64,000 nt of DNA from a virus. Lineage: Duplodnaviria; Caudoviricetes. Location: positions 128,001 through 192,000 of the IMG/VR virus record IMGVR_UViG_3300025121_000014; one strand, given 5' to 3'. Made by a program: the position numbers and the translations under genes. The number at the start of each line of letters is the position of its first letter. The stretch's first letter is position 1. Below are positions 13,570-31,293 of this stretch, piece by piece. Under the pieces are notes generated by a model that saw nothing but the letters and a program-made list of their open reading frames with translations, was not told where the DNA came from and ran no database searches.

Positions 13570-14538
13570 ATGACACAAACTAAAGCATTTATTGATATTT
13601 ATACAAAAGACTATCCAGTAGGAAAAGTTTTGAAATGTAATATGTGGTTAGAAGGAGAATATACTGATAATATGGTATGTGAATTATTATCTAATGGATT
13701 AAGTGATTATGTGAATGGTATAAAAAAATTCAGAAATAAATATATTGTAGCTGGTTTTAAAGTTAATTTTACTATGTATTTTAAAAATAAAGATGAAAAT
13801 AATAGTTTTAATGAAATTATAATAATGGACGAAAGAGATTATAAACAGAACAATACTATATTATTAAATAATAATCGATTAAATAATAATCGATTAAATA
13901 ACATATCAATTACTAAAGTTGATGGTCGTGTTATAGTTGAAGGATCTGAAAATTCACAAAAAGTAGAACTTACATCCGATTTAAAAATAGCTACTGATGG
14001 TGGTTCGACCATAAATATTAATGATAAAACAACTGAAAAAAAGAAATTTGTAAAAGCTAATTTAAAAAATCTTAGACTATATTTATACAATAATGAAGAA
14101 TTAACCGAATTAAAACATAAATTAGAAATTGAATTTTTTAAAAGAAAATATAAATTAAGTGATGATGAATTTACATATTATTTAGAAAATAGAAATATTA
14201 TAAAACCCGAAAATATTAAAAAATCATTTAAAAGAAATGGTGGAGATGCATTTAAAATTAAAAAAAATAGAATTAGAAAAAAATTATTCCCACTTGATAA
14301 AAATGATAAAATAATTGATACTACTATAAAAAATGATAGTGAAAATATTGTTGAAAAAAAAAGTCCAATAATCCCTGAATTATCTCCTGATGCGATTAAA
14401 ATTGCATCTGAAATTAAACCAAAATCAAGAATTAAAATTATTAAACCTAAAACAACAAAATATAAAAAAATGAATGGAAAAACAACACCAGTATCAAAAA
14501 CAACAATTAATGAACTACCAACTACACTAAAGATGTAG
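13570..14538 (+). CDS. Hypothetical protein, paralog family copy 3 with C-terminal extension; 3' end supplied by IS right end
   Basis: TQTKAFIDIYTKDYPVGKVLKCNMWL...VAGFKVNF; reads into the IS at 14510. Confidence 0.7.
   Translation: MTQTKAFIDIYTKDYPVGKVLKCNMWLEGEYTDNMVCELLSNGLSDYVNGIKKFRNKYIVAGFKVNFTMYFKNKDENNSFNEIIIMDERDYKQNNTILLNNNRLNNNRLNNISITKVDGRVIVEGSENSQKVELTSDLKIATDGGSTININDKTTEKKKFVKANLKNLRLYLYNNEELTELKHKLEIEFFKRKYKLSDDEFTYYLENRNIIKPENIKKSFKRNGGDAFKIKKNRIRKKLFPLDKNDKIIDTTIKNDSENIVEKKSPIIPELSPDAIKIASEIKPKSRIKIIKPKTTKYKKMNGKTTPVSKTTINELPTTLKM
13864..13901 (+). repeat. In-frame 15-bp tandem repeat (about 2.5 copies; LNNNR)
   Basis: ttaaataataatcga x2 + ttaaataa. Confidence 0.85.
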
Positions 14539-15969
14539 TGGTTTCTGAATCGAACTGATTCATCTCTTTAAGCACTTCATTGCCGTTGCCTAATTTCTTA
14601 GGTCTTATTTTTGCTCCATGCTCGTAATCAGACGTTCCATCTGATATATTTTTTCTATATCCTTCATTGAGGATATTGATTGCTGCATTTACATCTCTGT
14701 CTTGTTTTTCACCACACTTACAATCCCAAGTTCGGTCTTTTAATGTTAAACCATTATTGATCCACCCGCACTTACTACAAGTCTTACTTGAAGGAAAAAA
14801 TCTATCTATGTGTATGACTTGTTTATCATTCCATTCAGCCTTGTATTCAAGGATATTAATGAAAGTTGACCAAGCAACATCTAAAATTGATTTGTTTAAT
14901 CCTGATTTAGCAGACTGACCATTTGGAAGATATTTACCATTTTCATCTTGTTTTGATTTACACCTATGAGACATACCTTTAACATTTAAGTCTTCAAGGT
15001 AAATCACATCAAATTGTTTTATTAAATCTAAAGCGGTTTTATGTATTAAATCCATTCTTGAATTACTTATCTTTTCATGTATCCTTGCAACTTTAATTCT
15101 TTGCTTTTCATAACGAATTGATTGTTTTACTTTTCTTGATAGAGATTGTTGATTTAATTTTAATTGATGTTGATAGTGTTTTAAAAATCTATGGTTCTTG
15201 ATTTTCGTTCCATTAGATAACACTAAAAAATCTTTTAATCCTAAATCTATTCCTACTGATAATCCACTTTTATTCATTGATATGTATTCCATTTCAGTTA
15301 AAATAGAAACAAAATACTTACCAGTAGGTGTTTTTGATATAACACAGTGTTTTATAACACCATTTATTTTACGTTCCATAATCATTTCAATACCATCTTT
15401 TCTAAACTTTGGTATGTAAAGTTTATTTTTCTTTACAGATACAAATTGTGGTATGGTAAATGAATTTTTTGATTTTCTTGACTTAAATTTTGGAAATTTT
15501 GTCCTCTTTTTAAAAAATCCATCATATGCAGTATCTAAACAATTTAAAGAAAATTGAAGTGTCTGACTATTAATTTCTTTCAACCATTTTTTATCTTCAA
15601 GTTTTTTAATTTGAGTTAATTCTTTTGATTGGTCATAATAATTTAAAGTTTTCTTATTGTTTAAATATTCATTTTTTCTTTGATTTAAAAAATAATTATA
15701 CACAAACCTCACTGAACCAAAATGTTTATTCAATAACACTTGTTGTTGTTCTGTTGGTTCTAATCTAAACTTATATGTATATCTAATTATTTTCATTTTT
15801 TATGTCAAAGTTTTTTCTTAACATAAGTATATATTAAAAGAAAAATGTCTGTTTTTCCATTTTTGAATTATTTATTAAAACTTTTAACTATTTTCAAAAT
15901 AATTAAAACCCGTTTTGGTCAAATTCATCCATTAAACTAAAGATTTAACGGTTTTCTTTGACGGTCAGT
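14510..15969 (-). mobile_element. IS200/IS605-family element, tnpB only (IS1341-like), no tnpA
   Basis: TTTAT target motif, LE hairpin at about 15917-15969, intact tnpB, RE hairpin ending GGTAGTTCAT at 14510. Confidence 0.9.
14522..15796 (-). CDS. tnpB: RNA-guided endonuclease TnpB
   Basis: N-terminal YKFRLEPT HTH; RuvC I GIDLG, RuvC II LED, Zn finger CSKCG...CKCG, RuvC III DRDVNAAINI all intact. Confidence 0.95.
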   Translation of the reverse strand: MKIIRYTYKFRLEPTEQQQVLLNKHFGSVRFVYNYFLNQRKNEYLNNKKTLNYYDQSKELTQIKKLEDKKWLKEINSQTLQFSLNCLDTAYDGFFKKRTKFPKFKSRKSKNSFTIPQFVSVKKNKLYIPKFRKDGIEMIMERKINGVIKHCVISKTPTGKYFVSILTEMEYISMNKSGLSVGIDLGLKDFLVLSNGTKIKNHRFLKHYQHQLKLNQQSLSRKVKQSIRYEKQRIKVARIHEKISNSRMDLIHKTALDLIKQFDVIYLEDLNVKGMSHRCKSKQDENGKYLPNGQSAKSGLNKSILDVAWSTFINILEYKAEWNDKQVIHIDRFFPSSKTCSKCGWINNGLTLKDRTWDCKCGEKQDRDVNAAINILNEGYRKNISDGTSDYEHGAKIRPKKLGNGNEVLKEMNQFDSETTTSLV

Positions 15970-18682: not shown

Positions 18683-19207
18683 ATGAAGTTAACAGATAAG
18701 CAAATAAAGGAAACATATATAAATGTATTAACTAGTACAAAAGTTAATGATATAATTAAGAAAAATAGCCAGGGACTTAAACTTGCGCTAAATGAACATA
18801 TATGGTTTGAAAAACAATTTGGTGTGAGAAAAGCAAATCTTAATTTTGCTATGACAACAGGTGAAATAGATGAATATGCCAAATGTAAAATGGATGTTCA
18901 TTACTTTGCAAATAAATATTGCCACATTAAAAGAGAAGACGGTACAATTGGACCAATGCAACTAAGAGATTACCAGAGAGATATTATAGATTTATATGTT
19001 AATAATAGATATTCTATATTAATGACTAGTAGACAATTAGGTAAGTGCAACTCCTTGGTAACCAGATTGTTAGTAAAATTTGACAATGGTGATGAATATG
19101 AAATTACTATGGGAGAATTATATTATACTTACATTCAACAAGAAAGAAAACTAACAATCATAGAAAAAATTAAACTTTTTCTATATAAAGCACTATCTAA
19201 ACTATAA
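18683..19207 (+). CDS. terL: Terminase large subunit N-extein (121 aa) + short split-intein N fragment (53 aa, 19046..19204)
   Basis: T4 gp17-like LRDYQ...MTSRQLGK, followed by Cys-initiated intein block A CNSLVTRLLV. Confidence 0.9.
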   Translation: MKLTDKQIKETYINVLTSTKVNDIIKKNSQGLKLALNEHIWFEKQFGVRKANLNFAMTTGEIDEYAKCKMDVHYFANKYCHIKREDGTIGPMQLRDYQRDIIDLYVNNRYSILMTSRQLGKCNSLVTRLLVKFDNGDEYEITMGELYYTYIQQERKLTIIEKIKLFLYKALSKL

Positions 19208-20827
19208 TATTTGATTATAAATATATTTTAAATTACCAGAATTATATATTCTATAAATTTTTCTTTCTAACATAATTTGATGTTCAGTTTTGTTAACATC
19301 ATAACCTTCTTTAATTAATTTATCTTTTCTGAAATTAAATCTATGGTGTCTAATTTGGTCAATAATATAATAATAATTAGGTGATGTTTTATGTATAAAA
19401 TCAAATCCTAAAACTTCATATAATTTTCCATTAGAATGACTTCTATCTGCATATGTAGTTATATTATCAAATTTATAATTTCTAATAAAATACTTAAATA
19501 ATTTACTAGCACATCCTATTACATTTGTATTAAGTTTATTACAAAACCTTAACATTTCATATTGTCCTTCGGTTTTTGAAGATGAATTCATAGATTTTCT
19601 TAATTTTCCAAAAGTCATTAATGAAATTAATTCATTTTCATAAAATAAACCTAATTTAATTTTACTTCCTACAAAACCTTGAATATGATTTTCATCTAGA
19701 AATTTTCTAACTAATTTATTATCAATTATTTCTTTAACTTCTGTTTTTCTAGCGTATATTTTGTTTGGTGTTCTACCTAACTTATTCAATATCATTGATT
19801 TAACTATATCTTGTTTATATACCCAATCATCTTCATATATATGAATTAATTGAATATTTTTTTTATCACATAATTCAGTTTTATCTAAATGATAATTATT
19901 CGGTCTATATAATTCATTATGCCAATAAACACCATTAAATTCAAATGCTAATTTTAAATCAGGGATATAAATATCTAATTCTTTTCCATCTAATATTTTT
20001 CTATCATTTGTTATTATTAAATTATTATAATTTTCTTTTATAAAATCTAATAATTTATTTTCTTTGTCAGAACCAGGATCATTAATAGGATTACATATTG
20101 TACATAATGTAGTATTAGTTTCTAATCTATTATAAAAAATTGTTTTAGGTATTTTACTTATATGATTATTACATTGATATATATAAGTATAATCTTCATA
20201 ATCAATATCAATAATATTGTTATTTTTATATTTTTGGATTAATTTATTTTTTTTATTAATTGTTTTTTTTTCTTGGGTAGATTTTAATTTTGATATATTA
20301 TCAACACCATATAATTTTAAATTAGTTTCTCTATATTTTTCTAAATTATTATAATTTTCATCACCATATTTTTCTTTTTTAGTAACTAACGATTGTTTAT
20401 GATTATTATAATTTTCATCACCATGTTTTTCTTTTTTAGTTTTTTTAATTTTTTCAATATGTTTTGTTGTTTTTGATGGGTGAGTCGTACCATATTTATC
20501 TAAACATGTTTTTATATATTTTTTACTATTTGTATAATTTTCATCACCATATCGTTCTTTTTTAGTTTTTTTCATTTTAATATATTTACATTTATTACAA
20601 TAATATAAGCCATCATCATATGTATTATTAATATATGTTCTATACTCCATATTTTTAATATCTCCACATATATCACATTTAACATCAATTTTAATTGGAC
20701 TGCCTTTAATTAAATCTTTTATATTTATATTTATAGTATCTCCTTTTTTGGCATCATAATTTTTATTTTTATAAAATGTAATATTTCTAGTACTTATATT
20801 CATTTTTACTTGTTCAGTTATAATCAT
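19202..20827 (-). CDS. Free-standing homing-type endonuclease (KYGxEN repeats + Vsr-like/PD-(D/E)xK nuclease + GNAT-like C-terminal domain)
   Basis: ELDIYIPDLKLAFEFNGVYWH; start set at MIITEQVK (20827) by comparison with paralog 27660..29276 and the upstream TATATA motif. Confidence 0.8.
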   Translation of the reverse strand: MIITEQVKMNISTRNITFYKNKNYDAKKGDTININIKDLIKGSPIKIDVKCDICGDIKNMEYRTYINNTYDDGLYYCNKCKYIKMKKTKKERYGDENYTNSKKYIKTCLDKYGTTHPSKTTKHIEKIKKTKKEKHGDENYNNHKQSLVTKKEKYGDENYNNLEKYRETNLKLYGVDNISKLKSTQEKKTINKKNKLIQKYKNNNIIDIDYEDYTYIYQCNNHISKIPKTIFYNRLETNTTLCTICNPINDPGSDKENKLLDFIKENYNNLIITNDRKILDGKELDIYIPDLKLAFEFNGVYWHNELYRPNNYHLDKTELCDKKNIQLIHIYEDDWVYKQDIVKSMILNKLGRTPNKIYARKTEVKEIIDNKLVRKFLDENHIQGFVGSKIKLGLFYENELISLMTFGKLRKSMNSSSKTEGQYEMLRFCNKLNTNVIGCASKLFKYFIRNYKFDNITTYADRSHSNGKLYEVLGFDFIHKTSPNYYYIIDQIRHHRFNFRKDKLIKEGYDVNKTEHQIMLERKIYRIYNSGNLKYIYNQIL

Positions 20828-20884
20828 ATTATTAGTTTTTATTTTATATATAAAAAGGTCAAAGTGTAAAATATCATTATTTAT

Positions 20885-21736
20885 ATGACCCGTCAAAGAA
20901 AATCGTTAAATCTTTAGTTTAAAGGATGAATTTGACATACCAAAATTAAAATTTACTGATATAGATTTACACAGAGAATTTAAAGGTGATATAAAAACTA
21001 TAACTATTTCAAAAACAACAACAAATAAATATTATATAAGTATTTTAGTCGATAACAAAAAAGAATTGCCTGAAAAACAACCAATTAAATTAGAAACAAC
21101 CGTTGGTGTCGATTTGGGAATTAAAGATTTTGTTATCACTTCAGATGGAAAGAAATTCAAGAACCAAGATTTCTTTAAATCTGCTTTAAAGAAACTAAGA
21201 GTTGAACAGCGTTCCCTTAGTAGAAAACAAAAAGGATCAAACCATTATTTAAATCAAAAATTAAAGGTTTCATTATTTCACGAACACATTAAAAACCAAA
21301 GAGAAGATTACTTACATAAAATAACTAAATACCTTGTAGATAATTATGATACAATTTGTATAGAAAATCTTGGTGTTTCTAATATGATGAAAAACAATAA
21401 GTTAAGTCGTGCTATAAGTGATATGGGTTGGTTTAAATTTAAATCATTTCTTGAATATAAATGTGAATGGTATGGAAAGAATTTAAGTGTGATTGGTAGA
21501 TTTGATCCTTCATCAAAAACATGTTCTGTTTGTGGAAAAATAAATAAAGAATTAACATTAAAAGACAGAAACTGGAAATGTAATTACTGTGGAACAGAAC
21601 ATGATAGAGATATAAATGCTGCAATTAATATAAGAAATTTTGGGTTGAGGAACCAACCTAGCGTTACACAAAGTGAATGGTTGCATTGTGCTTGTAGCGT
21701 AGAAACACACAAATCTTCAGTTTGTGCGTAGTTCAT
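20885..21736 (+). mobile_element. Internally deleted IS200/IS605 element
   Basis: TTTAT then LE atgacccgtcaaag...gaatttgac fused directly to mid-tnpB; RE ends GTAGTTCAT at 21736. Confidence 0.9.
20937..21731 (+). pseudogene. tnpB: 5'-truncated tnpB (RuvC and Zn finger retained, N-terminal lobe and start codon lost)
   Basis: Frame IPKLKFTD...VGVDLG...IEN...CSVCG...CNYCG...DRDINAAINI; in-frame TAA at 20907 and no in-frame ATG ahead of RuvC I. Confidence 0.85.
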
Positions 21737-21776
21737 ATATTTTTAATTTGAATTAGTTTATTTAATATATAATGTT

Positions 21777-24026
21777 ATGATTAAATTATTTATAAAACAG
21801 ATAATATATTTAATAATAGAATTATTAGAAAAAATGGAATATAAAAATAATTCATTTGATGAAAATAATCCATTAAAAAAAATTATTAATACTATTCCTA
21901 TTGATAATGTTTCTATTGAAACCGATTATGGGTTTGTTCCTATAACTGAAATGAATTTAACTGCGCCATTATCATTATATAGATTAGAATTAGATAATGG
22001 AGATTGGTTAGAATGTGCAGATGATCATATAGTATTCACAGAAGGACATCAACAAAAATTTGTTAAAAATTTAACAACAGATGATAAAGTATTATGTAGA
22101 GAAAATTATATTGAAGGTATAAAAGTTAAATCAGTTAAAAATCTTAAAAGAAAAGTTAGTTTAATGGATATTACAGTAGATACTAATGAAAAAAGTTATT
22201 TTGCTAATAATATCTTAAATCATAATACAGTTTCAGCCGCAATTGTAATATTGCATTTTTGTTTATTTAAAGAAAATAAAGGTGTTATGGTTGTAGCAAA
22301 TAAAGGAAAAACAACAATAGAAATTATAGAAAAAATAAAAAGTATTTATAAATTATTACCATTCTTTTTAAAAGCGGGTATTATTAATTGGAATCAATCA
22401 AGTATTACTTTTGACAATGGTTGCCAAATTAAAACGGAAAAAAGAACTAAGGAACCTGCAATCGGTTTTACAATAGATCTCCTTTATCTTGATGAATTTG
22501 CTCATATACCTGAGAATTATATTGTACCGTATTATACTGCGGTTGTACCAGTTGTATCTAGTATTGAAAATTCAAAAATTATTATCACATCTACGCCAAA
22601 AGGATTAAACTTATTTCATAAATTATTAATAGAATCTGAATTACCAGAAGATGATCCTAATTGGAATGGTTATCGTTCTTTAAGAGTATACTGGTGGCAG
22701 GTAAAACATAGTAGAGATACAAAAATATTCTTTAACGAAAAGAAATTAAGAAAATATAAATTAAATAAAACTGAATTAAAACAATTCTTAATTGAAAATA
22801 AATATAACATTTATGAAAAAAACGAAAATAATTTAAATGGTATATTTATAAATTATGAACCAAATGAAGAAAGTACTCAGATTGATTATATAAGAAACTT
22901 AAGATATAACGAATTACCTTTATCTGAATTAGGTATGATTACTAATTGGGAGGAACAACAAACTAAATTGATTGGCGGAGAAGATGGTTTTAAACAAGAA
23001 TATGATCTTCATTTCTTAACAGGTAATAAAATGTTATTTGATAGTGTTCTTCTAGAAAAAATGATGGAAGACAAATTACCATTTGAATATTATAGTATTC
23101 CTATATTTAATGAAAAATTAAAAATACCTTATAATAATTTAACATTTGTTAAAGGACAACCAGAATTATTTGATATGAAAAAAGTAAAAGATTATCATAT
23201 TTTTATATCAATTGATTTAGGTGAAGGATTAGGTCAAGATTATAGTGTTATTAATATATTTAGAGTAATGCCAAAAACATCAGAAGAATTAAATTATTTT
23301 AAAAAACGAATTGATGGATTGTATGATTATTTTAAACTTGAGCAAATCGGTATGTTTAAATCAAATATTTATTCAGTTAAAGAAGTATCATTAATATTAT
23401 ATATGATTACTTTCGAATTATTTAATGATAATAAAGTAAGAATAGCACTTGAAAGAAATGTATATGGTGATGAACTTATTGCTCATATGCCACATGTTTT
23501 TGACGATAACAATAATTATTCTAGTCACGTATTTTTAAGATATAAACATAATTTAGAACAAAAAACATCTAGAATGGGAATAAAAGTTAATAGGAATAAA
23601 TTATCATTAATAAAAGATTATCAAATACAAACGAAAAAGGGAAATATTGTTATTCGTCATTTAAATACTATTACCGAATTAAGTACATTTACTAAAAAAG
23701 AAACTCCTAGTGGTGGAATTACATATCAAGGAGAAAGTGGTCACGATGACCAGGCAATGACGGTTATTGTTTTAGCAACAATATTTAATCATGTAGGATG
23801 GAAAAATTGTATTGAAGAATTTATGAAAGAAAATAAAGATAATAGAAATCTAATACATAATGATTTTAACAAAATTGTTGATGAATATCAAGCAGATATT
23901 GGTGATATTAAAACGTTTCAAATTTCATATAAAAAGATTTATAATAAAAATTACAATCCTAAAAATCAAAAACAAGTTGGATATGGTGGTAAAATAGCAC
24001 CTCCCATTTTTCCAACAAGAAGATAA
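21777..24026 (+). CDS. terL: Long split-intein C fragment (150 aa, 21777..22226) + terminase large subunit C-extein
   Basis: Block B LECADDHIVF, block G YFANNILNHN/T; then Walker B LLYLDEFAH, TSTP coupling motif, nuclease SIDLGEG...HDDQAM. Confidence 0.92.
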   Translation: MIKLFIKQIIYLIIELLEKMEYKNNSFDENNPLKKIINTIPIDNVSIETDYGFVPITEMNLTAPLSLYRLELDNGDWLECADDHIVFTEGHQQKFVKNLTTDDKVLCRENYIEGIKVKSVKNLKRKVSLMDITVDTNEKSYFANNILNHNTVSAAIVILHFCLFKENKGVMVVANKGKTTIEIIEKIKSIYKLLPFFLKAGIINWNQSSITFDNGCQIKTEKRTKEPAIGFTIDLLYLDEFAHIPENYIVPYYTAVVPVVSSIENSKIIITSTPKGLNLFHKLLIESELPEDDPNWNGYRSLRVYWWQVKHSRDTKIFFNEKKLRKYKLNKTELKQFLIENKYNIYEKNENNLNGIFINYEPNEESTQIDYIRNLRYNELPLSELGMITNWEEQQTKLIGGEDGFKQEYDLHFLTGNKMLFDSVLLEKMMEDKLPFEYYSIPIFNEKLKIPYNNLTFVKGQPELFDMKKVKDYHIFISIDLGEGLGQDYSVINIFRVMPKTSEELNYFKKRIDGLYDYFKLEQIGMFKSNIYSVKEVSLILYMITFELFNDNKVRIALERNVYGDELIAHMPHVFDDNNNYSSHVFLRYKHNLEQKTSRMGIKVNRNKLSLIKDYQIQTKKGNIVIRHLNTITELSTFTKKETPSGGITYQGESGHDDQAMTVIVLATIFNHVGWKNCIEEFMKENKDNRNLIHNDFNKIVDEYQADIGDIKTFQISYKKIYNKNYNPKNQKQVGYGGKIAPPIFPTRR

Positions 24027-27659: not shown

Positions 27660-29276
27660 TTATTTTAAATTCTTTAAATATTTAAATTTTAAATTACCAG
27701 AATTATAAATTCTATAAATTTTTCTTTCTAACATAATTTGATGTTCTGATTTATTAGCATCATAACCTTCTTTAATTAAAACATCTTTTCTAAATCCAAA
27801 CCTGTGATATCTAATACCATCAACGACATAATAATAATTTGGTTTAGATGTATGTGAATATATGAATCCTAAATATTCATATAATTTTCCAGTTGAATGG
27901 CTTCTATCTGCATACGTAGTTATTTCTTTAAATTCATAATTTCTTATAAAATATTTAAATAATTTTGAAGCACCACCTATTACATTAGTATTTAATTTAT
28001 TACAAAATCTTAACATTTCGAACTGCTTTTCTTTTGAAACTGAATTCATCATTTTTCTTAATCCACCAAAAGTCATTAAACTAACTAATTCATCTTTATA
28101 AAATAATCCTATTTTAATAGATGATCCCATAAATCCTTGAATATGATTTTCAGCCAAAAAGTTTCTGACTAATTTATTATCTGTTATTTCTTTTACTTCT
28201 GTTTTTCTTGCATATATTTTATTTGATGTTTTACCTAACTTATTTAAAATCATTGATTTAACTATATCTTGTTTATAAATCCAATCATCTTCATAAATGT
28301 GTATTAATTGAATTTTTTTTTCATCACATAAATCAGATTTTATTTTATGATAATCGTTTGATTTATATAATTCATTATGCCAATAAACTCCATTAAATTC
28401 AAATGCTAATTTTAAATCAGGTAAATAAATATCTAATTCATAAGGATTTATTATATTCCTATCATTTGTAATAATTTCTTCTTTATAGTTTTCTTTTATA
28501 AAATCTGATATTTTTATTTCAGAATCAGATTTAAAATTGAAACCTATTGAATTACACTTAGTACATAACGTAGAATTTAAAATTAATCGATTTTTTAATA
28601 ATCCTTTATTTATTTTAAAAATTTGGTTACAATTATTACATTTAATAAAATAATCCGGATTATTATAATTTATAACTATAATATTATATTTATCTTTATA
28701 GTATTTGATGGAATTTTTATTTTTAATATTTTGTATTTTTTTATATAATTCTTGTTGTATTTCTTTAGATTTTAATCTATATTCAACTCCATATTTTTCT
28801 AAATTTGTTATTTTAATTTTATCCCATACTTCTTCTGTTTCTAAACCATATTTCTTTCCGTATTTACTTAAATTAGTATTTTGAAGTTTTTTAATTATTG
28901 TATTTGAATGCATAGGGTGATCAACACCATATTTTTTTAATAATGTATTTTTAGATTTTTCTTTTATTTTATCTAATTGAAAAATATTTTCAACATTATA
29001 TTTATCATTTAATCTTCTAATACATTTATCATTAGAACATTTTTTAGAGCAACAATATTCTTCTGTTAAATTATTAGTATTTTTGATATATTGGAAATAT
29101 TTTAATTTTTTTTCTAATCCACATATATCACATTTTACTTTAATTTCAACATGACTATTTTTTGATAAATCTGTTGGTTTTACCAATGAATATTTTAATA
29201 AAACATCATACCCTAATTGTTCATAATGTTTTTTTAATTTTCTATTATTAATTTTTACTTCTTTTGTAATAATCAT
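27660..29276 (-). CDS. Free-standing homing-type endonuclease, paralog of 19202..20827
   Basis: Same architecture: CDICG, KYGVE repeats, ELDIYLPDLKLAFEFNGVYWH, near-identical C-terminal ~290 aa. Confidence 0.8.
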   Translation of the reverse strand: MIITKEVKINNRKLKKHYEQLGYDVLLKYSLVKPTDLSKNSHVEIKVKCDICGLEKKLKYFQYIKNTNNLTEEYCCSKKCSNDKCIRRLNDKYNVENIFQLDKIKEKSKNTLLKKYGVDHPMHSNTIIKKLQNTNLSKYGKKYGLETEEVWDKIKITNLEKYGVEYRLKSKEIQQELYKKIQNIKNKNSIKYYKDKYNIIVINYNNPDYFIKCNNCNQIFKINKGLLKNRLILNSTLCTKCNSIGFNFKSDSEIKISDFIKENYKEEIITNDRNIINPYELDIYLPDLKLAFEFNGVYWHNELYKSNDYHKIKSDLCDEKKIQLIHIYEDDWIYKQDIVKSMILNKLGKTSNKIYARKTEVKEITDNKLVRNFLAENHIQGFMGSSIKIGLFYKDELVSLMTFGGLRKMMNSVSKEKQFEMLRFCNKLNTNVIGGASKLFKYFIRNYEFKEITTYADRSHSTGKLYEYLGFIYSHTSKPNYYYVVDGIRYHRFGFRKDVLIKEGYDANKSEHQIMLERKIYRIYNSGNLKFKYLKNLK

Positions 29277-29280
29277 AATA

Positions 29281-30213
29281 TTATATTTTTATTTTAAATT
29301 CTGTTAATGGAAATTCTTGTGGTTTATAAATTTTTTCTCTTCTTGATATATATTGATTATATATAATATTTTTATAAGATGGATGATATTGATCAACTAT
29401 ATCAAACACAACTAACTTTTCTTTATCTGCATGTAATCTTAATCCACGACCAATTGATTGTCTAATTATTTGATCTGATTTAAAACTGTCAGCAAAAACA
29501 ACATTCATTAAATTTTTAACATTTATACCTGTTGAAAATGTTCCAAATGACGCAATTAATATTTTTGGTTTATTATCCGATATCTCCATTATTTTTTTAA
29601 TTTTTTCTCTTTTATCTTTATTAGTACCACCGTCAATATAATAAAAGAATTTATCTGTAATATTATCTCTAAGATATTCATATAATTCTGTACCATATAT
29701 TATATTATGAAATAATATTAATGAATTGCTTGTAAACTTATCTACTAATTTTTTGAAGAACATTTTCCTTCTTAATGATTTTTGAGCAAATTCTTTTTCT
29801 AATAAATATGCTTCTTTTCCTTGACCTCTTTTTTTAATAGCATACATTTTTTGTGAGAAATCTTCTTCATCATGATTTAATATCATAGCATTAATTTTTA
29901 CCTTAGATACTAGACCTTTATCCATTAATTCTTTAGCTTTAACAGTCATTAATTTAGGTCCCATTAAAGATTGAATAGTAAGAATTTCGGCTGAACTATT
30001 CGGTGGATATGTTCCAGATAACCCCAATCTATAAATAGCATTACCAAATGTTTTAGATAGTATTGTATCTAAACTTTTTGCTTTTGCTACGTGGCAATTA
30101 CTAACACATATTCCATTAGCAAAATAATTATTATTTATATCATTTCCTTCTTTTATTCTTATATTATAAACGTCACCAGTATAATCTATTTTTTTAATTG
30201 ATTTAATTTTCAT
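29281..30213 (-). CDS. uvsW: Split-intein C fragment (39 aa, 30097..30213) + UvsW helicase C-extein
   Basis: MKIKSIKK...VYNI...YFANGICVSN/C, then CH (completes DECH), LSGT motif III, ASFGTFSTGINV motif V, QSIGRGLR motif VI. Confidence 0.9.
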   Translation of the reverse strand: MKIKSIKKIDYTGDVYNIRIKEGNDINNNYFANGICVSNCHVAKAKSLDTILSKTFGNAIYRLGLSGTYPPNSSAEILTIQSLMGPKLMTVKAKELMDKGLVSKVKINAMILNHDEEDFSQKMYAIKKRGQGKEAYLLEKEFAQKSLRRKMFFKKLVDKFTSNSLILFHNIIYGTELYEYLRDNITDKFFYYIDGGTNKDKREKIKKIMEISDNKPKILIASFGTFSTGINVKNLMNVVFADSFKSDQIIRQSIGRGLRLHADKEKLVVFDIVDQYHPSYKNIIYNQYISRREKIYKPQEFPLTEFKIKI

Positions 30214-30237
30214 TATAATTTTTTATCATTTTTATTT

Positions 30238-31293
30238 TTACATATTAAAATCTATAATATCATCATTTTCTAATAAATTGTCTACTCTTTTCCATATACC
30301 ATTTTTTAATAAAACTTTATGATTTCCTGTAATATAGATAAATTCACCATTTTCTAATTCTAATTCATACATATTTTCAAATTTAGATAAGTTTTTGTAA
30401 ACATAATCAACCTGTTTTATTTCTTTTTCTTTTGTTAATTCATTAAATGTCCATACTTCATCTCCTATATTAATATTTTTTATCATTTCTTTATTACCAG
30501 ATCCCATTTCTATTAAAGTATTAGGGTGTAAACATTCATCTGTGACAACAATATCAAATTTTTTGAAATAATTGATATCATATTTATCCGATGATAAACT
30601 TTGATAAGTTCCAATATAAATATTAGGTTCTTCACCATCTCTTACTTTTCTTGGCTTATCAGAAAATACTTCTTCTATTTTCAAATTAAATGGATTTGTT
30701 TGTTCTTTATTAAATCCTAAATTATAATCTAATATTTCATCGTAAAATTGAGTTACTAAACTCATTCTAGGTACAATTAATAGAACTTTAATATCAGGAT
30801 TGATAAACTTCATTATGTAAAATATAAACGTTGAAAATATAAGAGATTTTCCACCAGCAGTTGCTACTTCAATTAAACCAAATTTATATTTCAACATTTG
30901 AAATACAGCATCTATTTGATGTTCATAAGGCATAAATAATCCTAATGGATTATCTTTAGTTGGAGGAACTCTATAATTTTTAAAAAATTCTTCAACAAAT
31001 TCTTTAACATCTTCTAATTTGATATTTAAATCAAATGGAAATGATGTCTTATCGACATCAAATTTATAATCATGATTCCGACAACATTTATATACTTCTT
31101 TCCAAAGACCGTATCTTATAATACCATTATGAAAATGATCAATAGAACCATCCCAAACTCCTAATTTATGTCGTTTTTTAAAATGATATCCTTCTACTTT
31201 TCTAGTAAGATGTAATTTTAATTGATGATATTCTTCATGAGTAGATTCTTTAATTATTATCTTATTTTTGTCGTCTGTTATTACTAATTTCAT
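30238..31293 (-). CDS. uvsW: UvsW helicase N-extein + split-intein N fragment (98 aa, 30241..30534)
   Basis: PYEHQ Q-motif, ATAGGKS Walker A, IVVTDE then intein CLHPNTLI...ITGNHKV (TxxH block B). Confidence 0.9.
   Translation of the reverse strand: MKLVITDDKNKIIIKESTHEEYHQLKLHLTRKVEGYHFKKRHKLGVWDGSIDHFHNGIIRYGLWKEVYKCCRNHDYKFDVDKTSFPFDLNIKLEDVKEFVEEFFKNYRVPPTKDNPLGLFMPYEHQIDAVFQMLKYKFGLIEVATAGGKSLIFSTFIFYIMKFINPDIKVLLIVPRMSLVTQFYDEILDYNLGFNKEQTNPFNLKIEEVFSDKPRKVRDGEEPNIYIGTYQSLSSDKYDINYFKKFDIVVTDECLHPNTLIEMGSGNKEMIKNINIGDEVWTFNELTKEKEIKQVDYVYKNLSKFENMYELELENGEFIYITGNHKVLLKNGIWKRVDNLLENDDIIDFNM

Follow-up and report, generated by a model that had tools for sequence, protein, structure and literature searches.

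A split intein in the large terminase of an uncultured phage appears to be cut at the tip of a conserved helix-turn-helix insert

In a 64,000-nucleotide stretch of phage DNA (Duplodnaviria; Caudoviricetes; IMG/VR record IMGVR_UViG_3300025121_000014, positions 128,001 to 192,000; hereafter the window), the gene for the large terminase subunit (TerL) is divided between two open reading frames (ORFs) by a split intein. The N-terminal intein fragment (IntN) ends in a helical tail, and the C-terminal fragment (IntC) begins with a helical head. Comparison with contiguous relatives, together with structural models of two of them, indicates that the tail and the head are the arms of one helix-turn-helix insert, at whose tip the window intein is cut. 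With ~40-60 residues, the insert follows the block A helix and precedes the first strand of the large fragment; it is characteristic of a single large clade of TerL P-loop inteins from huge and T4-like uncultured phages. We favor, with some reserve, the reading that the separated arms re-form the hairpin in trans and thereby assist docking of the two halves before the Hint domain closes and splicing proceeds.

The two halves of the gene and their parts are as follows, with positions in the window.

18683..19207, plus strand: N-half ORF, 174 amino acids, with the C-terminal end ...ERKLTIIEKIKLFLYKALSKL and the stop codon TAA at 19205-19207
18683..19045, plus strand: TerL N-extein, residues 1-121, whose last residues, SRQLGK, are the first part of Walker A; phrog_5989, E 1.1e-19
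19046..19141, plus strand: Hint core of IntN, residues 122-153, with Cys1, the first beta strands and the block A helix (ELYY)
19142..19204, plus strand: tail helix of IntN, residues 154-174, predicted outer arm of the hairpin
21777..24026, plus strand: C-half ORF, 749 amino acids, with the N-terminal start MIKLFIKQIIYLIIELLEKMEY
21777..21842, plus strand: head helix of IntC, residues 1-22, predicted inner arm of the hairpin
21843..21893, plus strand: linker of IntC, residues 23-39, with the conserved FDEDN..KIIN (K35, I36 and I37 invariant), leading back into the Hint core
21894..22226, plus strand: Hint core of IntC, residues 40-150, with block B His84, block F Asp131 and the terminal His149-Asn150
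22227..24026, plus strand: TerL C-extein, whose first residue is the Walker A Thr (+1 nucleophile); PF03237 Terminase_6N, E 1.5e-11

Profiles of the large terminase subunit match the N-half ORF over its first ~120 residues (phrog_5989), and the C-half ORF carries the end of an intein splicing domain at residues 115-150, followed by the Terminase_6N match from residue 153 on. The Cys1 codon (19046-19048) stands directly after SRQLGK, and the terminal His-Asn pair (22221-22226) is followed by a Thr codon (22227); IntN has 53 residues (C122-L174) and IntC 150. Because an intein-free relative (LR756504) reads through as an uninterrupted SRQSGK-T, the intein lies inside Walker A, between SRQLGK and T, and its +1 nucleophile is the Walker A Thr. 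The best matches of the window are uncultured huge phages of 460-735 kb (LR756500-LR756504), and its G+C content is 21-25% throughout.

Judged from sequence, TerL is interrupted by a class 1 intein that is split after block A, an atypical site. N-halves collected by a word-indexed search formed 41 clusters, all of 167-180 amino acids, in which the position-1 nucleophile C122 is invariant and Y147/Y148 are nearly so. In 13 IntC sequences, the block B histidine (H84), the terminal His-Asn (H149, N150) and the +1 nucleophile (T151) are invariant. The break leaves an IntN Hint part of 32 residues and places blocks B, F and G all on IntC. The Hint horseshoe fold was recovered in contiguous relatives (AlphaFold2 model and Foldseek), and the window halves themselves were aligned by sequence to the gp41-1 and NrdJ-1 inteins. 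The layout is that of a fractured gene, with extein-N plus IntN and IntC plus extein-C as separate genes and a free-standing endonuclease gene between them. Trans-splicing would be expected to restore GKT and an active terminase.

The link between the tail and the head comes from inteins that are not split. An exhaustive profile search with IntC residues 1-155 matched 1246 proteins at E <= 0.001, and the best 150 of the 1246, which were listed, include, alongside split C-halves whose first residues are the head, the contiguous terminases P0062, P0063, P0071, P0078, P0095, P0106, P0115, P0131 and P0181, with the head starting at ~residue 160-215. In contiguous inteins, the tail motif is joined to the head motif by 2 to ~17 residues. 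We modeled two natural contiguous inteins with AlphaFold2, using a 63-row alignment. The model of P0071 (residues 132-335; predicted local distance difference test, pLDDT, 94.8; predicted template-modeling score, pTM, 0.90) shows the block A helix at 26-37, a helix at 42-57, a two-residue turn and a helix at 60-73, and that of P0063 (residues 114-328; pLDDT 93.6, pTM 0.88) shows a helix at 34-51, the residues GKG, a short helix at 55-60 and a helix at 64-82. The window tail corresponds to helix 42-57 of P0071 and helix 34-51 of P0063, and the window head to helices 60-73 and 64-82, respectively. Since contiguous relatives join both motifs and AlphaFold2 folds them as a helix-turn-helix, we assign the tail and the head to one insert.

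A Foldseek search with a contiguous model gave 66 matches in the PDB at E <= 0.001, and all 50 of the matches listed were inteins or Hint-type (bacterial intein-like, BIL) domains. The top match was VidaL (6vgv; E 2e-11, root-mean-square deviation 2.8, TM-score 0.87 on the target and 0.63 on the 204-residue model), and Cat-TerL (6dsl) was also among the matches. When the register of the window arms is mapped onto P0071, the turn would fall between tail residue 174 and head residues 6-7. In this register L167 would face I14, K164 would face E18, and position 171 would face 10/11. The two arms also resemble each other (..IKxFLYKxL.. in the tail, ..IIYxxIExIEK.. in the head), and MAFFT stacked IntN tails on the head columns. 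This likeness could stem from an old internal duplication or from convergence of two packing helices.

The initial annotation had quoted a peptide from each broken end, and both occur exactly as quoted, in ORFs 18683..19207 and 21777..24026. It had also placed both segments outside the Hint core and called them helical, and both statements agree with our data. In a phmmer search against the PDB, IntC aligned only from residue 40 (gp41-1) or 51 (NrdJ-1) onward, and in helix-less relatives IntN is shorter, ending 34-56 residues past Cys1; on these grounds IntN 154-174 and IntC 1-39 lie outside the Hint core. The Hint core of the window IntN aligns with the helix-less IntN pieces of two related loci (L006 and L007), and the linker region of IntC is also found in helix-less relatives (..RKF[IV]..). 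DSSP assigns helices to the corresponding segments in the AlphaFold2 models of the contiguous relatives. The description of the helices as appended to the intein halves, however, has to be given up, because they are arms of an insert common to one entire clade of TerL P-loop inteins, in contiguous as well as split members.

AT-rich DNA gives peptides rich in I, K, L, F and Y. The two segments might accordingly be taken for chance read-through of AT-rich sequence, or for scars of endonuclease insertion, given a genome of 22% G+C and an amphipathicity only modestly above that of shuffled sequences (hydrophobic moments muH of 0.44 for the tail and 0.49 for the head, matched by 6% and 3.5% of shuffles). 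As composition and amphipathicity alone are modest, it is conservation that decides that the helices are more than chance. The tail is present in all 41 N-half clusters (consensus ERKLTxxEKIKxFLYKxLxKL, with K164 and L167 invariant), and across them it is less variable than the Hint core of IntN (entropy 1.24 versus 1.96 bits). The head is present in 13 of the 13 closest IntC sequences (consensus MxKxxxRxIIYxIIExIEKxEYRN, with I10, I14, E18 and E21 invariant). Across 55 non-redundant paired loci, E18 is kept in 55, K164 in 54, I14 in 53, and L167 and E21 in 50 each. The conserved positions form a stripe with a spacing of 3-4 residues, at 157/160/164/167/171/174 in the tail and 3/6/10/14/17/21 in the head, and the conservation moment at 100 degrees, which corresponds to one helical face, is equalled in permutations at a rate of 0.2% (head) and 5.7% (tail). 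With both helices also recurring in 53 paired loci (described below) and ratios of non-synonymous to synonymous substitution (dN/dS) below 1, the conservation data refute the read-through and scar reading, to which we attach practically no weight.

The dN/dS values are 0.47 for the tail and 0.34 for the head, compared with 0.55 and 0.37 for the Hint cores of IntN and IntC. Because these values resemble those of the catalytic cores at synonymous rates (dS) of 0.7-0.8, the constraint acts on the protein and not on the DNA. The opposite view, in which an endonuclease target, a promoter or a terminator is what is conserved, would suit the position of the segments on either side of the mobile-gene insertion point, as well as a dS (0.74 in the tail, 0.81 in the head) somewhat below that of the exteins (~1.2). 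We regard it as very improbable, since synonymous change is plentiful while the amino acids are kept, the conservation has a 3.6-residue period, and the same peptides occur in contiguous genes.

To place the window locus among its relatives, we collected related loci. Searching viral contigs with a single protein found no loci, whereas the IntC alignment as query retrieved 80 viral and 13 metagenome loci (93), and several more were obtained by exact protein look-up. All stop-to-stop frames were scored against profiles of both halves, and co-occurrence was counted over the non-redundant loci in which both halves were found. Head and tail occur together in 53 of these loci, eight have neither, and two are borderline. 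One of the two (L067) has a shortened tail that falls below the threshold; the other (L090, IMGVR_UViG_3300026518_000006) is the only one-arm case seen, with a tail-like hydrophobic IntN end and an IntC of the helix-less type (start MKLSDKINRKF) that lacks the head. The initial annotation had named co-conservation of both helices in homologous split TerL loci as a check of its proposal, and in these counts the two helices do co-occur. Among the pairs that lack the helices are another terminase (L007) and an SbcC-like protein (L006), and ten of ten sampled head-bearing C-halves were terminases.

The helices are kept whatever lies between the halves. They are present where the gap is only 21, 36 or 44 nucleotides and holds nothing, where a Vsr-like endonuclease gene lies on the same strand (L002, L008), and where the endonuclease is antisense (L012 and the window). 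They are likewise retained across gaps of 1-4.5 kb with different endonucleases on either strand, and in a 735-kb phage (LR756501) with 12.4 kb of other genes between the halves. This distribution bears on the idea that the hairpin serves some other job, such as contact with the homing endonuclease, DNA or a terminase partner, or conditional control of splicing. A point in favor of such a role is that R155, E161 and K164, together with E18, E21 and R23, form a conserved charged face, for which a purely hydrophobic zipper would have no need. The retention of the helices with different endonucleases, with none, or with halves 12 kb apart speaks against it, as does the absence of a DNA-binding or other family match on either half, and we consider it improbable.

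We then examined how split and contiguous states are distributed on a tree of 93 sequences built from the IntC core plus 230 extein residues. The hairpin-bearing inteins all fall in one group (Shimodaira-Hasegawa-like approximate likelihood ratio test, SH-aLRT, 98), which takes in two further contiguous members bearing different inserts there. Within the hairpin group there are nine changes between the split and contiguous states, at least six of which are forced by well-supported branches, and every change lies at the hairpin tip. A fused pair (P0062/L058) adjoins a split locus (L049) on the tree, with nearly identical arm sequences. Because the state switches repeatedly inside the clade, the insert either predates any given break or is at the very least independent of it, and its tip is where breaks or re-fusions recur.

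What the arms would do once separated can be outlined as follows. The IntN tail (residues 157-174) and the IntC head (residues 2-22), translated separately, would pair in antiparallel orientation. A Hint piece as short as 32 residues would thereby gain a hydrophobic interface of ~20 residues, and the paired arms would help the halves to capture each other and dock correctly. The Hint fold could then close, and trans-splicing would restore GKT and the active terminase. A suggestive covariation links tail position 171 and head position 11, which lie 3-4 residues on either side of the turn and would be opposite one another: among 55 pairs, an aromatic residue at one of the two positions accompanies a non-aromatic residue at the other, and the four cells of the comparison hold 25, 25, 5 and 0. 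Where independent pairs were compared, the second trait shifted in the same direction in 1-2 cases, and in none did it shift the opposite way. A complex prediction with short segments (IntC 1-40 and IntN 141-174, with alignments) and no controls gave an ipSAE of 0.07 (mark 0.32) and bears neither way.

Several points weigh against pairing in trans. The high pLDDT and pTM and the two-residue turn imply a hairpin, which falls short of proof that the arms pack over their full length. The aromatic swap amounts to only 4-5 independent changes on the tree and loses significance when relatedness is taken into account. With roughly a single origin of the hairpin, the 53-versus-8 co-occurrence reflects few independent events; we had considered counting these loci as independent and rejected this, the hairpin forming about one clade on the tree. 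Contiguous inteins have the insert too, and in them it cannot serve association in trans. Finally, among 17 sampled members of the sister group that lacks the helices, 9 are split at the same site (8 being contiguous), which means that the hairpin is not needed for a working atypical split; these helix-less split relatives presumably work without the helices.

Some of these points favor a different explanation, in which the break site is tolerated and not clamped. The hairpin would then be a structural surface insert of this intein clade, perhaps one that contributes to fold stability or the tuning of splicing. Its exposed tip would be a harmless place to cut, and homing endonuclease genes would insert there for that reason; the halves would associate through the ordinary Hint interface, with little contribution from the helices. 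The presence of the insert in contiguous inteins, the helix-less relatives split at the same place, and the AceL, GOS and Cat TerL inteins, which splice with an IntN of 25-37 amino acids and no such helices (PMC11766414), all fit this explanation. It accounts less well for a tail that is less variable than the catalytic core of its own IntN, for charged residues (K164, E18) that are invariant or nearly so in the 55 paired loci, and for the 65 split members among 76 sampled in the hairpin clade, a sample that was drawn with a split-IntC profile. We hold a merely tolerated break to be unlikely, although it is the alternative that we take most seriously. Re-formation of the hairpin in trans, by contrast, is the reading we lean towards. 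The broader proposal that these phages possess a large natural TerL intein family with its own two-helix zipper exactly at the break, whose arms hold the fragments in trans and make the intein indifferent to being cut, is one that we put at slightly short of even. If true, such a zipper would explain why endonuclease genes have split, or left, the hairpin tip at least 6-9 times.

Some C-halves have unusual architectures. C-halves of ~1070-1120 amino acids exist (P0065 and P0105; L026, L055 and L056). In a Pfam scan, P0065 and P0105 proved to have another intein, a contiguous one, at a later point in TerL (Hint and intein-splicing domains, with LAGLIDADG also in P0065). In L026, L055 and L056, the second Hint match, near residue 1000, is no more than weak. 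Terminases of the P0065/P0105 type would need two splicing events. In a head-bearing TerL C-half (P0069, 592 amino acids), residues 469-588 match a response-regulator receiver domain (PF00072, E 5.8e-12) that replaces the usual C-terminal region; this may be a fusion or an assembly artefact.

Two genes lie between the halves of TerL in the window.

19202..20896, minus strand: free-standing homing endonuclease gene; phrog_3339, E 1.9e-115, with a C-terminal Mom-like domain (PF25680, E 3e-6)
20898..21737, plus strand: tnpB remnant (IS605-type OrfB), truncated at the 5' end; PF01385, E 8.8e-27, and PF07282, E 2.4e-24; right end ...TAGTTCAT

The true start of the endonuclease is probably the ATG at 20827, and the listed TTG start lies too far upstream; a paralogue of the endonuclease at 27660..29276 starts MIIT.., which matches the ATG at 20827. 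The tnpB remnant lacks the first ~175 profile positions, phrog_506 being matched only from position 177. Its 3' region is richer in G+C and ends in ...TAGTTCAT, 39 nucleotides before the start of IntC. A 424-residue ORF, of typical tnpB length, is found at 14522..15796 on the minus strand, and tnpB genes also lie near the terminase loci of two relatives (L008 and L010).

The window contains a second fractured gene, in the region 27660-31293 on the minus strand; it encodes a DEAD/UvsW-like helicase (29281..31293) with a canonically split intein. Its IntN of ~100 residues is part of ORF 30238..31293 and its IntC of ~39 residues is part of ORF 29281..30213, and the C-terminal half is followed immediately downstream by the paralogue of the TerL-locus endonuclease (27660..29276). 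At the break, this intein has one acidic end (...ENDDIIDFNM) and one basic end (MKIKSIKKI...), which is the classical charge-complementary arrangement, and no helices. Most genes of the window have no Shine-Dalgarno sequence upstream and have A-rich upstream regions, and a TATATA(A) motif stands 5-30 nucleotides before many starts, that of the IntC gene included. This pattern fits the Bacteroidetes hosts predicted for related huge phages (PMC7162821).

If the arms do pair in trans, they would represent a natural design for stronger association of fragments at an atypical split site. The clade would then offer a self-associating, atypically split Cys1/Thr+1 intein in dozens of natural split and fused versions, and closely related members of this series, such as fused P0062 and split L049, would serve to test the cost of the break. 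It would also illustrate how a phage can withstand having one of its essential genes invaded again and again by endonuclease genes, and the built-in association module could be useful for protein engineering, as the initial annotation proposed. If the arms prove irrelevant to association, the finding is a clade-specific insert in a known kind of fractured terminase gene.

In literature searches for a helical or coiled-coil module or insert at the break of natural split inteins, in which coverage of subscription journals was poor, none was found. The closest known inteins are AceL-TerL (25/104 amino acids), GOS-TerL (37/115) and Cat-TerL (30/104), which have Cys+1 and, in GOS-TerL, Ser1 (PMC11766414). 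Like the window intein, they are natural split inteins in large phage terminases, broken shortly after block A, with a short IntN and a long IntC on which most Hint motifs lie (PMC2677866, PMC11766414), and their fold is related. The window intein differs from their type, with its IntN of 25-37 residues and Cys+1, in having 53/150 amino acids and Thr+1 and, it seems, in its position inside Walker A; relative to these inteins it carries ~20 extra residues on IntN and ~39 on IntC, which contain the conserved helices of the hairpin. The IntN of GOS-TerL can be trimmed to 27 residues, and the fragments of AceL-TerL and GOS-TerL bind each other with low to medium affinity (PMC11766414). Kinship with AceL-TerL and GOS-TerL is indicated in our data only by the distant structural match to 6dsl, and the comparison with them draws on their published descriptions. 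VidaL (6vgv) was the best structural match of a contiguous relative's model, but it has 145 residues and covers the Hint part only, and by this coverage it has no counterpart of the helix-turn-helix.

At the level of the locus, the nearest precedent is the set of fractured genes with split inteins and free-standing endonuclease genes described by Dassa, London, Stoddard, Schueler-Furman and Pietrokovski in 2009, which includes one terminase broken at an unusual point (PMC2677866). As in the window, a split intein interrupts the gene of a conserved phage enzyme, and an endonuclease gene, free-standing, lies between the halves. In those loci, the three genes lie on the same strand, whereas in the window the endonuclease is antisense and accompanied by a tnpB remnant. 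The broken ends described there are charge-complementary, with no helices described, and the relatives of the window locus, unlike those loci, have halves that are adjacent or up to 12 kb apart.

In function, the closest analogue is the split NrdA of Aeromonas phage Aeh1. According to Crona et al. 2011 (PMC3045599), the C- and N-terminal tails at the break made by a mobile endonuclease are interaction domains needed for assembly. The Aeh1 tails arose with the insertion, there is no intein, and the halves remain non-covalent, whereas the arms of the window intein appear to predate the break and its catalytic residues are intact. A parallel also exists in engineered split inteins with dimerization domains (Sce VMA with FKBP/FRB), in which halves that bind each other weakly gain effective affinity from an association module placed at the break (PMC11766414). 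Those fusions are man-made, whereas the module of the window intein, if it acts in this way, would be a natural part of an intein family fold.

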